From Escherichia phage BUCT825: a DNA stretch of 44,228 nt. Below, piece after piece: positions 7,409-32,146 of the stretch. Every line of letters starts with the position of its first letter. Positions within the stretch are counted from its first letter, which is position 1. Location: the sequence record PV040721.1, one strand, 5' to 3'. Both the position numbers and the translations under genes were made by a program. The notes beneath the pieces are model-generated. The model worked only from the letters and a program-made list of their open reading frames with translations, searched no databases and was not told the origin of the DNA.

Positions 7409-9667
7409 CTATTCCAAATCCTCCTCTGTCACCACCAGCATCTCATTTGGTTCGTATAGTGTCTTCGGCCTTAATCTATCACCTATTCTTTCGGGTATCC
7501 GGTATGTGCCGGGGACAACTTCACCGTTAACATCACATCCGAGCATCAACTCCCCGTCTTTCAGCATCTTCTCGAGATGATGGTTGGTGATGGCGTGGTC
7601 CCCCGAGTTCGCCACTATCTGCCGTTGGGTAAAACCTCGTCCGGTGTCGTCGGACTGTTGCAGGTCTTCCAGCGCGGCGAGTATTGATTCCTTACGCCCT
7701 TCATCCTTCCCGCGTTTTACAGCATTATTTACGTTTTCTTTACCTTCTTTAGTTAACCCTTCTTCCCGCTCCTTCTCCTCGTCAGTTTTGAACGGCTCGA
7801 AGCCCCACGGCATCAGCACAAGCGCCTTGTGCGGCTCAGGCAGATCGAGGTTTACGATTGTGCCGTATTCCTCTGTGCTACCGAGGAACTCAACTGCACG
7901 GTATTCTTTCGGAGGCGGGGCTTCACGGAACTGTACCGACTCCAGAACCATGCCAACCGTTTTCTGTTGAGGCCCATGCTTAAATTTCGAGTGGTATACG
8001 TTTATCTGGCGGTCGGTAGCGCGCTCAATTGTCAGCTCCACATCAACACCGGCATACAGCGCCCCGCTACCACGGGCTTTCTTTCCACCCTTAGGCGTAT
8101 GGTGGACGACACCCACAGCGGCTTTAGTTGCGTCGCGTACTTTTTTAAGGATGGCGATAACTTTACCCATGCCAATTGCAGTTGATGAACTGTTCTCGTC
8201 GAACTTGTCAATTGTCAGGGCCAGCGTCTGGTTGAGGGTATCGAACGCGACCATACCAATAGGCTCGTCCCCTGCAGCTTCACGCATCCTGCGGATTAGC
8301 GCGGGGATTTTTTTATCACCATGCGCAGCGAGCACCTCACCCATATCAATGACATGTACGTAATCTTTACCTTCCTCGCCGTATTTAGCCGCGAGCGCGT
8401 CAATACGTGTGCGTGTAGCTGCGCCTCCCTCACCGTCGATATAGAAATGGTGGCAACGCTGGGTATCCGCCCCGGCAAACCGGTATCCGGCGGCGCTCAG
8501 GTACATCATCCCCAGCGTATAGAACGATTTGTACGTGCCGGATTCCCCAACAATATCCCAGATACAATCTGACGGCATGTACCCCTCAACGACGAAATCA
8601 GCCTTTACCGGTTCCGGTAGCTCGTCCTCTTCTGAGTCATCATCGTCTTCCAGGTCGTCGAGGCTGCATGAAACAGATTCACGCGCACCCCATCCGATAG
8701 CCTCGGCGACTTCACTGAACGGCAGCCCGGTCGCATCACACGCGTATTTCCACACCTCTTTCGGCGACATGCCTTCGGTTGCCGTGATGTCGGTGTCGTG
8801 AATCATCGTTACGTTCGGCGCTTCATATCCCTCGCGCGGGAAGCACAGCAGGAAGTCGTCCGGGCGCGGGGTCGGGTCGCTGTAGTTTTCTGCGTGTTCT
8901 GGCGTAGCTGGCATCTTAAGGCCACGCGGCGTCATGATGCCGCCGTACTCGAATGCCAGTGCTTCAAACGCATCTGTAAACGCGGTGCGCAGTTCTTCCG
9001 GTATCTGGTAATCAGATGCGCTGCTGATGTCAACGGCTGGGACGCCTTCCAGTAACTCATCAGGGTCAATCAGGTCGTTGCGGCGCGACCAGATAACAGT
9101 AGAGCCAACTGGCGGCAGGTACATCGGCTGCGACAGAGTGAACCCGCTGCGGTCCGCGCCCATGCCTTTGAAGAAGTGCTCCAGTAATCCATGGCGAACA
9201 CGGATGATGCCGCCACCTTCAACCGGGCGGGCCAGCGGCATGACGACGCGAAAGCGCGGCGACTCGTCGGTATGTGATGCCGTGGTGTAGAGACACATCG
9301 CCTGGCGGCTGCGCTTAACCAGGCGCACCGCTTCCCGATACTCTTCCGGTGTTGCGCTATCGAAGTCAAGATACGCCAGCGACGATTTGCTTACAGACGC
9401 ATCACAGCGATAGAAGAAGCCTTTACGCGCTTGCTTAAAGTCACCGGTTTCCGGGTCTTTTACGGTGCTGTGTGTGGAGTCGCACGCGGCGGTGATATAA
9501 CCGGGTGCGGTCTTCGGGTTAATTCCGTCACGGACAGCATCAAGCGGCTGGATTAAATCTTTCAGGTCGCCCAGCGTTGCCGTGTGTGTGGTTCTGACGT
9601 TTATATCCTTTTTCTCGGCCCGCGCGTTGCGACGAGACCACGAGTAGGATAAAATTACATCGGACAT
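7409..9667 (-). CDS. Primase-helicase (N-terminal primase/polymerase-like region plus RecA-like P-loop ATPase), 752 aa
   Basis: Walker A GESGTYKS, HHTPKGG motif typical of RepA/AAA_25-type helicases; large N-terminal domain; C-terminal winged-helix-like tail. Confidence 0.75.
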   Translation of the reverse strand: MSDVILSYSWSRRNARAEKKDINVRTTHTATLGDLKDLIQPLDAVRDGINPKTAPGYITAACDSTHSTVKDPETGDFKQARKGFFYRCDASVSKSSLAYLDFDSATPEEYREAVRLVKRSRQAMCLYTTASHTDESPRFRVVMPLARPVEGGGIIRVRHGLLEHFFKGMGADRSGFTLSQPMYLPPVGSTVIWSRRNDLIDPDELLEGVPAVDISSASDYQIPEELRTAFTDAFEALAFEYGGIMTPRGLKMPATPEHAENYSDPTPRPDDFLLCFPREGYEAPNVTMIHDTDITATEGMSPKEVWKYACDATGLPFSEVAEAIGWGARESVSCSLDDLEDDDDSEEDELPEPVKADFVVEGYMPSDCIWDIVGESGTYKSFYTLGMMYLSAAGYRFAGADTQRCHHFYIDGEGGAATRTRIDALAAKYGEEGKDYVHVIDMGEVLAAHGDKKIPALIRRMREAAGDEPIGMVAFDTLNQTLALTIDKFDENSSSTAIGMGKVIAILKKVRDATKAAVGVVHHTPKGGKKARGSGALYAGVDVELTIERATDRQINVYHSKFKHGPQQKTVGMVLESVQFREAPPPKEYRAVEFLGSTEEYGTIVNLDLPEPHKALVLMPWGFEPFKTDEEKEREEGLTKEGKENVNNAVKRGKDEGRKESILAALEDLQQSDDTGRGFTQRQIVANSGDHAITNHHLEKMLKDGELMLGCDVNGEVVPGTYRIPERIGDRLRPKTLYEPNEMLVVTEEDLE

Positions 9668-9725: not shown

Positions 9726-9959
9726 TTATTCCAGGTCTTCTAAAGTAGCGGTCATTCCGCGAACTTCGGCAACAGCACTATATTTCCCGCCAACATTTTT
9801 CACGACACCAGATTTAACCAGTACCTTCAACGACCCTTCAATAATGGCGGAACTATAGTACCTAAAATAACTACGGCGCAAGTCCATAACGCTGCACGAC
9901 CCTTTTTTACAGGTTAATGAAACGACTGCCGTAAATACGCGGGACTGGAACTCGGTCAT
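9726..9959 (-). CDS. hypothetical protein (77 aa)
   Basis: ORF with stop/start overlap to upstream gene. Confidence 0.5.
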   Translation of the reverse strand: MTEFQSRVFTAVVSLTCKKGSCSVMDLRRSYFRYYSSAIIEGSLKVLVKSGVVKNVGGKYSAVAEVRGMTATLEDLE

Positions 9960-10126
9960 TTTACATTCTCCTTAATCCACGCTTCCACTTTCTCCGGGTT
10001 GAAAGTACCCGGCTGCCGGCGGCCCATAATACGGATACAACAATCCGGGAACTTCCCACTCTTTAACCAGTTATTCAGCGTGCGACGGGTAACCCCAATA
10101 CGCTCGGCTACTTCATTCTGTGTCAT
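9956..10126 (-). CDS. small HTH DNA-binding protein (AlpA/excisionase-like fold), about 56 aa
   Basis: MTQNEVAERIGVTRRTLNNWLKSGKFP; ATG at 10126 with GGGGGT SD; the longer ORF to 10159 would overlap the -10 of its own promoter. Confidence 0.6.
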   Translation of the reverse strand: MTQNEVAERIGVTRRTLNNWLKSGKFPDCCIRIMGRRQPGTFNPEKVEAWIKENVK

Positions 10127-10158
10127 TCTCAAACCCCCATTATCAGTTAACGAAACCA

Positions 10159-10187
10159 AGTATACATTGCGAATAATGGGAAATCAA
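10159..10187 (-). promoter_or_regulatory. sigma70-like promoter, minus strand (-35 TTGATT, 17-bp spacer, -10 TATACT)
   Basis: Reverse complement TTGATT-N17-TATACT directly upstream of the small HTH gene. Confidence 0.55.
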
Positions 10188-10202
10188 ACATAATCGCACC
10201 TA

Positions 10203-10231
10203 TTGACATTAAGAAAATCTTCGTTTAAGGT
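10203..10231 (+). promoter_or_regulatory. candidate promoter, plus strand (-35 TTGACA, 17-bp spacer, -10 TAAGGT)
   Basis: Perfect -35 with correct spacing; weak -10; back-to-back with the minus promoter. Confidence 0.35.
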
Positions 10232-10467
10232 GCTTCTATATCTTAGTTACTTTGATTCCTGTTCACCTTGTAAAACCCGCCGAAAACGAGCGCCCAACGC
10301 GAAGTGTTAGGCGGCAGTTTACTGAACATTCGAATTATCGTAACTTTCCTTCCTAAGTATCTCCGGTTGCCCTGGGCAAGCTCTATTCCCATCGGCGGAA
10401 TATATCTTAAGTATCTGATTTTCTTAAAGTGCCGTAGATTCGCAACCGTAAAAATGTAACGATTATT

Positions 10468-10488
10468 GGGCAGGCTTAGGGCCTGCCC
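10468..10488 (+). terminator. Hairpin GGGCAGGC-TTAGG-GCCTGCCC followed by TTTAGTT (terminator-like) inside the 450-bp noncoding region
   Basis: 8-bp perfect stem read directly. Confidence 0.35.
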
Positions 10489-10570
10489 TTTAGTTACCAA
10501 GTAATAAGAATAAAGGCACAACCCTACCTGAAGAATCACAACGGCAACGTAACCATTTTCAATGAATCTC

Positions 10571-10599
10571 TTGCACACCCCAACATAATAGGTTACTAT
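10571..10599 (+). promoter_or_regulatory. Early-type promoter (-35 TTGCAC, 17-bp spacer, -10 TACTAT followed by TCAC)
   Basis: TTGCACACCCCAACATAATAGGTTACTATTCAC; near-identical copies at 12262-12290 (+) and 32118-32146 (-). Confidence 0.6.
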
Positions 10600-10633
10600 T
10601 CACTTATTGAAACTAGACAGAGGAGTTAGGGTT

Positions 10634-10819
10634 ATGTTTAAGAAGGGTCAGTTGGCTAAAACGAAACGCGGCGGACAGTACGTAATAGTTACCCAGGACG
10701 AAAATGAATACAGTATCGCTGTAGATGTATGGGGTCTTATACGAAAGAAACATGGTTACGCCTTCCGCGATAATTTAAAACTCATCGGCAACAATTTTAA
10801 ATTCAAAGGGGCGAAGTGA
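10634..10819 (+). CDS. hypothetical small protein (61 aa)
   Basis: ATG with SD GAGGAG; first gene after promoter. Confidence 0.5.
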   Translation: MFKKGQLAKTKRGGQYVIVTQDENEYSIAVDVWGLIRKKHGYAFRDNLKLIGNNFKFKGAK

Positions 10820-12261: not shown

Positions 12262-12290
12262 TTGCACACTAAGATAGAATAGGCTACTAT
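12262..12290 (+). promoter_or_regulatory. Early-type promoter (-35 TTGCAC, 17-bp spacer, -10 TACTAT followed by TCA)
   Basis: TTGCACACTAAGATAGAATAGGCTACTATTCA. Confidence 0.6.
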
Positions 12291-12322
12291 TCATTTACAC
12301 AGACGAGACAGAGGAAAACGAA

Positions 12323-27329: not shown

Positions 27330-27688
27330 TGAGCACCGCTTTCAGTAAGCGTATGCAAGGCGTGGGTACGCGCCTGCTAACTAAATTCGGTAGCACGGTA
27401 TCTCTGATTCGCGCTGGCTCAAAAGTGTGGGATGAAGTTCTCGGTGAATATGTCTGGTCTGACGATGAAGTGTTGCCGTTGAAGGCCGTTCCAGTTCCGG
27501 TAAACGCAGGACTGGTGAACGGTACGACTATTCAGGCAGGCGACATGATTGTTAAAGCGGATTGCAGCGTCGTTCCGAAGATGGAAGACAAGGTGCAATT
27601 CGGCGGCGAGCAATGGTCTGTCGTAGCCATTGAGAAGAAGATGGTTAACGATGATGTCGTGGCCTACTTTATCCAGGTGAGAAAATGA
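27329..27688 (+). CDS. head-tail joining protein (about 120 aa)
   Basis: ATGA overlap at 27329; position. Confidence 0.45.
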   Translation: MSTAFSKRMQGVGTRLLTKFGSTVSLIRAGSKVWDEVLGEYVWSDDEVLPLKAVPVPVNAGLVNGTTIQAGDMIVKADCSVVPKMEDKVQFGGEQWSVVAIEKKMVNDDVVAYFIQVRK

Positions 27689-32087: not shown

Positions 32088-32117
32088 TTTAAACCCCTTC
32101 ATTGTTGGTGTAAGTGA

Positions 32118-32146
32118 ATAGTACCCTATTATATTGGGGTACGCAA
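32118..32146 (-). promoter_or_regulatory. Early-type promoter on minus strand (-35 TTGCGT, 17-bp spacer, -10 TACTAT followed by TCAC) driving the antisense cassette
   Basis: Reverse complement TTGCGTACCCCAATATAATAGGGTACTATTCAC, nearly identical to the promoter at 10571-10599. Confidence 0.6.

Follow-up and report, generated by a model that had tools for sequence, protein, structure and literature searches.

Bacteriophage lambda produces a short constitutive leader, the 194-nucleotide (nt) "6S" RNA, which starts at pR' and ends at tR', as well as another short transcript, oop. The primary origin of phage T7 consists of promoters 1.1A and 1.1B together with an A+T-rich stretch, and the RNA II of ColE1 is a folded primer RNA. 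Here, we describe a long spacer in Escherichia phage BUCT825 (sequence record PV040721.1; "the window" is the whole 44,228-nt stretch that was analyzed). The window is a nearly complete genome of the genus Kagunavirus (Guernseyvirinae), and vB_EcoS_XY1 is 99.9% identical to it over the test kilobase. The spacer occupies positions 10127-10633 between two divergent gene blocks, from the start codon of a helix-turn-helix (HTH) gene at 10126 to the first plus-strand ATG at 10634. A preliminary description, made from the sequence alone, had found the region but drawn it slightly too narrowly, at 10160-10606, and had proposed that it encodes a regulatory RNA or is a replication origin. A conserved promoter and covarying helices bear out the RNA half of that proposal; the origin half gained no support and is the less likely of the two.

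Comparative sequence analysis points to a structured non-coding RNA locus in the spacer, one that is conserved in Guernseyvirinae and had not been described before. In the reading that we favor, at a probability of roughly 60%, host RNA polymerase makes a structured non-coding RNA from a rightward promoter, P_plus. In BUCT825, this RNA would be partly released at a hairpin at 10468-10488 and partly continued as the leader of the early operon, and it would act through its fold and its conserved unpaired motifs. The spacer is non-coding, its promoters are conserved, its helices covary, one strand is preferred, and analogous RNAs replace it as a module in other phages. The locus is unsurprising in kind, falling among the phage early non-coding or leader RNAs. 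Within a widely used group of phages, however, no other non-coding element is as well conserved, and its expression could be examined in public RNA-seq data.

Like lambda 6S and oop, the predicted RNA would combine a promoter for host polymerase, a structured non-coding RNA of ~80-250 nt and a hairpin terminator ahead of phage genes, and part of the transcripts may read through. It differs from them in that no Q-like or N-like antiterminator was identified in BUCT825, that the element precedes early rather than late genes and has a second promoter after its hairpin, and that it is related to them neither in sequence nor through Rfam; a U-tract is also missing from the hairpin of some relatives. 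The T7 primary origin and the spacer are alike in being promoter-containing non-coding regions in phages with a T7-like replisome, in which transcription could open or prime the DNA. Unlike in T7, the BUCT825 promoter is one for host sigma-70 rather than for a phage polymerase, no clear A+T-rich block is present, the covarying RNA helices have no T7 counterpart, and the spacer is only a candidate origin. As with RNA II and RNA I of ColE1, the RNA would be folded, a few hundred nt long and located beside replication functions, and its stem-loop sequence varies while the pairing is kept. In contrast to ColE1, a search of the phage turned up neither an antisense partner nor a complementary site. 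The RNA is also oriented away from the replication genes and does not overlap their leader, and nothing points to RNase H processing or priming.

Few phages are isolated as often for therapy and food safety as Guernseyvirinae (Kagunavirus and Jerseyvirus), which also serve as a chassis for synthetic biology. The most conserved non-coding block of the group has been undescribed so far and appears as a hypothetical protein in several GenBank records. Should expression of the RNA bear out the prediction, Rfam would gain a new phage family, and the RNA would give access to early gene control or the start of replication in Guernseyvirinae; the region should then not be deleted blindly during genome minimization or engineering.

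A covarying stem-loop downstream of P_plus

Transcription from P_plus is predicted to start near 10238. The promoter is followed by an element of ~255 nt that is predicted to form a rod, a middle hairpin and a GC-rich hairpin with a short U-tract (Table 1). For the plus strand between 10238 and 10497, the fold has a minimum free energy (MFE) of -76 kcal/mol (z = -3.46). The rod, SL1, has a single architecture in every sequence type folded, and its apical part shows compensatory changes (for example, UGU..ACA versus CGC..GCG, and A-U versus C-G).

Covariation was assessed in two alignments. Alignment A2 places SL1 of the E. coli clade on a hand-written structure, and alignment A4 holds 34 distinct sequences of both the E. 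coli and Salmonella clades, fitted to a model. In A2, 96.7% of the cells were paired, compared with 27-42% when partners were slid, and four pairs showed double changes. In A4, the corresponding value was 95.4%, with double changes in 16 of 32 pairs. The covariation score of SL1 in A4 was 0.392, against 0.154 for shuffled alignments (0 of 500) and at most 0.094 for slid partners. SL1 therefore has the hallmark of a structured RNA, namely, pairs that are kept by compensatory substitutions beyond the controls. A covariance model (R1) built from the hand-written SL1 structure of the E. coli clade recovered SL1 in all type A loci, including those of Salmonella phages (33-44 bits). R1 had no match in type B loci (the spacer types are described below) or in 648 kb of unrelated viral DNA.

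SL1 resembles the RNase III hairpins of T7 early transcripts and of the lambda N leader in being a long, irregular, shape-defined rod near the 5′ end. Processing of this kind would fit the free variation of the SL1 tip, and SL1 is a candidate RNase III site only; the strong primary-sequence conservation of 10400-10590 would be left unexplained. Within SL1, the sequence TGTTCACC (10260-10267) may resemble the P4 origin repeat; this reading was set aside, and the Salmonella clade has TGTTTCAC instead.

We then considered the strand. SL1 contains 42 G.U cells and only 6 A.C cells. Four pairs of the middle hairpin alternate between Watson-Crick and G.U and never break; on the minus strand, they would read as A.C mismatches. 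Taken with the conserved promoter upstream and the terminator-like end, the G.U counts and this switching favor a plus-strand RNA.

The same rods could also form in DNA. In IncQ plasmids, the single-strand initiation (ssi) hairpins ssiA and ssiB are recognized by RepB', and rods formed in unwound plus-strand DNA of the spacer might likewise serve the RepA-type helicase-primase, through its primase part, as recognition sites. In favor of this, the helicase domain belongs to the RepA/AAA_25 type, the base and 3′ flank of SL1 are invariant while its tip varies, and the non-template strand has the sequence of the RNA, so the strand bias would look alike. We nevertheless regard ssi hairpins as very improbable. 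Sequence and profile searches found no Pfam, NCBIfam or PDB relative of the presumed primase domain that would assign its type, and G.T wobbles are poorly tolerated in DNA hairpins yet frequent here. The element always lies behind a conserved promoter, which ssi signals need not have, and protein and site do not co-diverge.

Table 1. Coordinates of predicted and conserved features in and around the spacer of BUCT825
Feature	Position	Strand	Details
Leftward sigma-70 promoter of the replication operon (P_minus)	10159..10187	-	-35 TTGATT 10187-10182, N17, -10 TATACT 10164-10159; promoter scan
Rightward sigma-70 promoter (P_plus)	10203..10231	+	-35 TTGACA 10203-10208, 17-nt spacer, -10 TAAGGT 10226-10231
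111-amino-acid open reading frame, spurious	10243-10578	-	Annotated as hypothetical protein in some relatives, e.g., Bas73_0055
SL1, 100-nt rod-like stem-loop	10245..10345	+	Helices P1-P5 and apical hairpin
Apical part of SL1, hypervariable	10275..10318	+	At least six unrelated sequence versions, all self-complementary
Single-stranded linker, conserved	10346..10362	+	Pyrimidine run CCUUCCU and first TAAGTATCT box
Middle hairpin UUGCC-C-UGGG..CCCA..GGCGG	10367..10398	+	99.2% paired; contains palindrome
Most conserved RNA block	10400..10499	+	Second TAAGTATCT 10408-10416, CTGAT 10415-10419, TGCCGTAG 10430-10437
3′ GC-rich hairpin with UUUAGUU tail, terminator-like	10468..10495	+	Hairpin 10468-10488, stem GGGCAGGC/GCCTGCCC
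Post-hairpin segment, conserved	10496..10570	+	Includes box GAATCACAACGGCAACGTAAC (10533-10553)
Early-operon promoter TTGCAC-N17-TACTAT	10571..10599	+	Member of a repeated phage promoter class

The 3′ half of the RNA and its possible release

The linker behind SL1 is unpaired in both the MFE and the consensus folds and is conserved in both clades. The repeated word TAAGTATCT, which the preliminary description had placed near 10353 and 10405, does occur twice, at 10354 and 10408, against 0.21 copies expected. The palindrome TTGCCC-T-GGGCAA is also present, at 10367-10379 (one base from the position first given), but it is not conserved, the Salmonella clade having CTGCCTTGGGCGA. The pairing that is kept in the middle hairpin joins 10367-10371 to 10394-10398, not the palindrome arms. 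Beside this non-conserved palindrome, GCTCTATT may resemble lambda boxA/boxB, a reading that was likewise set aside.

In its 3′ half, the RNA is 97.1% paired and mostly invariant, with double changes in four pairs; the stem of the 3′ hairpin shows a compensatory C-G to U-A change in four sequences. This hairpin and its U-tail had been recognized at the outset, and TTTAGTT indeed follows it. It has a 9-bp stem (ΔG of -17.1 kcal/mol) and five U in the first 8 nt of its tail, which is the arrangement of an intrinsic terminator, a G+C-rich stem-loop directly before a U-tract. An outer GUAAC/GUUAC stem (10456-10460 and 10493-10497) extends it. A predicted transcript from near 10238 to near 10495 agrees in size with the ~250 nt suggested previously. 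As for features of Hfq-dependent small RNAs (sRNAs), the conserved unpaired CCUUCCU run is present, and the tail reads UUUAGUU, compared with the ~6 or more uninterrupted U that were sought.

These elements suggest the following mechanism. Host sigma-70 RNA polymerase would start at ~10238 from P_plus, back-to-back with the promoter of the replication operon, and would probably do so early in infection. The RNA of ~255 nt would fold into the SL1 rod, the single-stranded pyrimidine linker, the middle hairpin, the conserved 3′ segment and the GC-rich hairpin. The last of these, with UUUAGUU, would probably halt a good part of the transcripts and release a discrete RNA, while the remaining transcripts would pass the second promoter into the early genes. 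Whether in trans or as a leader, the RNA would act by its shape and its conserved unpaired motifs, not as an antisense RNA to its own phage genome. Its most likely partner would be a host factor common to E. coli and Salmonella, such as RNA polymerase, an RNase or an RNA chaperone, because conservation of the 3′ half far exceeds that of the phage replication proteins (~57% identity in the N-terminal part of the primase).

The spacer is non-coding

An alternative is that the spacer holds an unannotated gene, either the 111-amino-acid (aa) open reading frame (ORF) on the minus strand, which is called hypothetical in Bas73 and several other records, or a small plus-strand ORF. A frame of 106-116 aa is uninterrupted in a number of close relatives, and PQ850603 annotates it as Bas73_0055. 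In most relatives, it is missing or shortened to 47-85 aa. Substitutions show no codon-position bias in any frame (variable sites at 40 of 95, 37 of 99 and 39 of 97 by position), and 87 of the 91 indels are not multiples of three and thus break the frame. The 111-aa ORF also overlies two promoters. The spacer has neither a conserved open frame nor a third-position bias nor in-frame indels. The earlier judgment that no credible ORF exists thus holds for all frames, and a conserved coding frame in relatives, which had been named as the finding that would speak against it, was looked for and not found. A protein-coding gene here is scarcely credible. The hypothetical protein called on the minus strand in PQ850603 (Bas73_0055; locus L002, 2880-3200) is probably an annotation error.

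Promoters of the spacer are conserved across two genera

Both promoters proposed at the left end of the spacer, TTGATT-N17-TATACT on the minus strand and TTGACA-N17-TAAGGT on the plus strand, are present and conserved in relatives. The promoter scan finds P_minus too but missed P_plus because its -10 hexamer fits at only three of six positions. Promoter-like matches within the single sequence do not exceed chance (7 found, 4.0 ± 2.5 expected); we hold the promoters to be real because they are conserved among relatives, not because of the number of matches.

This conservation was read from 26 aligned spacers, taken from phages of E. coli and Salmonella in two genera, in which the hexamers of both promoters vary little or not at all. 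The blocks AAGTATAC and ATAATGGGAAATCAA of P_minus are invariant, as are CACCTATTGACAT and TAAGKT of P_plus. In both promoters, the 17 nt between the hexamers differ in sequence between the clades while their length is constant. P_plus and P_minus thus have the form of sigma-70 promoters, with hexamers near TTGACA and TATAAT 16-18 bp apart. Type B spacers carry TTGCTT-N17-TATACT at the location of P_minus, and, in the position that corresponds to P_plus, the non-homologous spacer types have TTGACT-N17-TAAGCT or TTGAAA-N18-TATAAT. As a scan probe, the 15-mer ATAATGGGAAATCAA was too unspecific and gave mostly chance matches in unrelated contigs, which we reused as a negative control.

The early promoter that had been reported at 10571 was confirmed as well. 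It belongs to a repeated class that heads three transcription units, at 10571-10606 (+), 12262-12297 (+) and 32111-32146 (-). TTGCAC-N17-TACTAT is exact at 10571 and 12262 and near-exact at 32146 on the minus strand. These copies have the extended identity AATAGGnTACTATTCAC in common, and the sequences upstream of them are unrelated.

Conservation of the spacer and its replacement by analogous RNAs

The spacer alone matches 446 phage records. In 208 of them, the match extends over 80% or more of its length; these include Salmonella Jerseyviruses with ~75% identity. The E. coli and Salmonella clades share 93% identity over 10400-10499, and no 50-nt window of the genes for the helicase-primase (32-84%) or the HTH protein (82-87%) reaches this value. 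This block also occurs behind a different 5′ module in two loci (L025 and L030). Genome-wide, the best 100-nt window against Jerseyvirus SE-W109 is 10491-10590, at 97% identity versus 74% overall. The box GAATCACAACGGCAACGTAAC is present in all Kagunavirus spacer types and absent upstream of the other early-promoter copies.

In other Kagunaviruses, spacers of types B1, B2 and C have largely non-homologous sequence in the same layout as type A: back-to-back promoters, a hairpin-rich non-coding stretch of ~215-250 nt, a GC-rich hairpin at its 3′ end, the GAATCACAACGGCAACGTAAC box and the early promoter. Type B and C RNAs carry compensatory pairs of their own. The short motifs CCTAARTATCT, CTGAww and TGCCGTrrG are common to all types. 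Measured from the HTH start, the distance to the CTGAww..TGCCGTrrG core is 295-306 nt throughout the types, although the position of P_plus varies. This exchange of one structured RNA for unrelated ones of the same layout is a natural experiment on the role that is required. The hairpin of type B1 was at first read as a c(UUCG)g tetraloop; this was dropped, as the loop is a UUC triloop.

No match to Rfam 15 was found in the whole window at gathering thresholds (best sub-threshold scores of 18-20 bits versus 39-80), and no tRNA or tmRNA was found. A search of 5,426 E. coli genomes, which detects matches of at least ~20 nt, returned nothing similar to the spacer RNA. A complementary site or second copy of the RNA elsewhere in the phage was not found either, the search giving only chance 10-12-mers and no target of at least 12 nt. 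In the searchable literature on this phage group, we found no account of transcripts, an sRNA or an origin for the spacer. Host mimicry and prophage copies were rejected; there were none in the E. coli genomes, and the plasmid matches are probably a phage genome plus noise. The plasmid entry in question, PLSDB CP088689.1 (44,086 bp, "Escherichia coli plasmid"), aligns at 82% with the spacer's right end and is of Kagunavirus size; it is probably a misfiled phage genome. A Jerseyvirus-type spacer is also carried by NZ_JACVEL010000022.1 (Taishania pollutisoli scaffold22, 18,987 bp, locus L181), which comes from a Bacteroidota assembly. It is ~90% identical to Salmonella phage SE-W109 over 6.2 of 8 kb and is probably contaminating phage DNA.

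Some spacers of other types contain tetranucleotide repeats of variable copy number around spacer position 320-350. These are (CTCA)3-7 in B1 (L028 and L032) and (GTGA)n at the same location in some B2 spacers (L041), inside the RNA. The spacer of Salmonella phage 5sent1 (MT653144, L047, 2516-3530) is ~1,010 nt long and has no conserved ORF. Besides the type A RNA, it contains a second TGCCGAAAGAT-plus-hairpin module, a G+C-rich stretch and then a TTGACG-N17-TACGAT promoter.

A possible replication origin or another DNA-level role

Several observations weigh against the RNA reading. The covariation counts overstate the number of events because the sequences represent few independent lineages. 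Comparing the two strands by free energy, or by the G.U pairs in the MFE folds of single sequences, is indecisive, and in the Salmonella clade the minus strand folds equally well or better. The G.U evidence for the plus strand comes from ~7 positions, in alignments that were partly fitted to or predicted from that strand. The equivalents of the 3′ hairpin in types B1 and B2 and in the Salmonella deletion type have no U-tract (three U in 8 nt, with one or two in the first 4), which means that release of a discrete RNA does not characterize the class. An RNA-only model predicts neither that the strongest conservation lies downstream of the putative terminator nor that the 295-306-nt spacing stays constant despite non-homologous filling. 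Promoter activity, the 5′ and 3′ ends of the RNA and its abundance are predictions. The transcript of the class as a whole probably runs on into the early genes as a read-through leader, and a discrete small RNA may hold for BUCT825 only, where the 3′ hairpin (ΔG of -17 kcal/mol, UUUAGUU) is a plausible partial terminator.

The constant spacing and the extreme conservation after the hairpin, in a box that the other early-promoter copies lack, leave room for a role at the DNA level, which could go together with the RNA. The main rival is an origin that depends on transcription, in which P_plus opens the DNA or provides a primer and the conserved blocks load the helicase-primase; the RNA reading is compatible with it. 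The locus adjoins a T7-like replication module (helicase-primase, gp2.5-like single-stranded DNA-binding protein [SSB], exonuclease and family A polymerase), the spacing from the left module to the core is constant in all spacer types, and conservation peaks downstream of the hairpin. GTAAC/GTTAC is locally enriched (see below), and the cumulative GC skew has its minimum at 10-11 kb. Skew tracks gene direction throughout the window, however, also at 30-32 kb and 42-44 kb, and the turn at 10-11 kb falls at a switch in gene direction, so skew says nothing about replication. Nor does the spacer resemble an origin of the iteron/DnaA-box type, with at least three direct repeats of ~17-22 bp, DnaA boxes and an A+T-rich element. 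It has no iterons or tandem repeats (only two-copy short repeats), no DnaA box at up to one mismatch and no marked AT-rich unwinding block (lowest GC content of 27.5% in a 40-nt window). Between genera, the N-terminal part of the primase is ~57% identical and the site 93%, which argues against a co-evolving pair of protein and site, and a T7-type origin needs no elaborate covarying helices. On balance, such an origin is unlikely, though it deserves to be taken seriously.

The RNA gene and the origin could also be one device. The P_plus RNA, or folded non-template DNA, together with blocks at a fixed distance, would recruit a shared host factor and either start replication or switch the three promoters. 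We consider this combination doubtful. If true, it would be a ColE1-like initiation device that depends on RNA structure in a virulent siphovirus with a T7-like replisome.

Short words recur in and around the RNA. Within 10246-10596, GTAAC/GTTAC reaches six copies in 400 nt (genome mean of 1.27), tied for the maximum, and AGTWWC has seven copies, the genome maximum. Most copies of both lie at helix bases and in the conserved box.

If the words TAAGTATCT, AGTTAC/GTAAC and CAACGGCAACG were operators for the HTH protein or another regulator of the three promoters, the region would be a control region at the DNA level and the hairpins would be by-products of binding sites built as inverted repeats. 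An HTH_17 DNA-binding protein that is expressed early is encoded next door, the repeated short words are enriched, the spacing is constant, and a conserved box lies just upstream of the early promoter. Binding sites would not explain a 100-nt rod with co-changing arms and at least six unrelated apical sequences, the switching between G.U and Watson-Crick pairs on one strand, or helix arms up to 95 nt apart. We therefore find a set of operators improbable and retain the structured RNA as the preferred reading.

Gene neighborhood and additional observations

To the left of the spacer, the minus-strand replication operon opens with the 56-aa HTH_17 protein (9956-10126). It continues with a 77-aa protein, the 752-aa helicase-primase (AAA_25), a DUF2800 exonuclease, the gp2.5-like SSB and the family A polymerase. 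The N-terminal 345 aa of the helicase-primase (8633-9667, minus strand) are the presumed primase domain and are ~57% identical between Kagunavirus and Jerseyvirus. A homologue search with this domain gave only three close homologues, and its single-sequence AlphaFold model had a mean confidence score (pLDDT) of 32.7. In 5sent1, the HTH gene is labeled "RppC" and the 77-aa gene "serine protein kinase", both probable annotation errors. The HTH gene is listed as early in a time-course RNA-seq study of Kagunavirus vB_Eco_K1B4, a close relative of XY1 (PMC12645636). The reads of that study (PRJCA028359 / PRJNA939978) were analyzed per gene, as gene-level counts only (PMC12645636).

To the right of the spacer, small early genes follow in series on the plus strand from the ATG at 10634. 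The first early protein (10634-10819, plus strand; 61 aa, phrog_12538) has conserved ends, MFKKGQLV... and ...LIGNNFKFKGAK, and a hypervariable middle with at least six unrelated versions among its homologues in the loci. A linkage between the RNA type and this middle part was considered and rejected, one protein type being found with different RNA types.

The 10-mer CAACGGCAAC occurs seven times in the window, against 0.26 expected, at 454, 4332, 5052, 10539, 26601 and 34736 on the plus strand and at 27472 on the minus strand. Six of the seven copies are thus on the plus strand regardless of gene direction, and those outside the spacer lie inside ORFs and have no common flanks. The 10-mer could be a strand-biased oligomer or an effect of codon usage.

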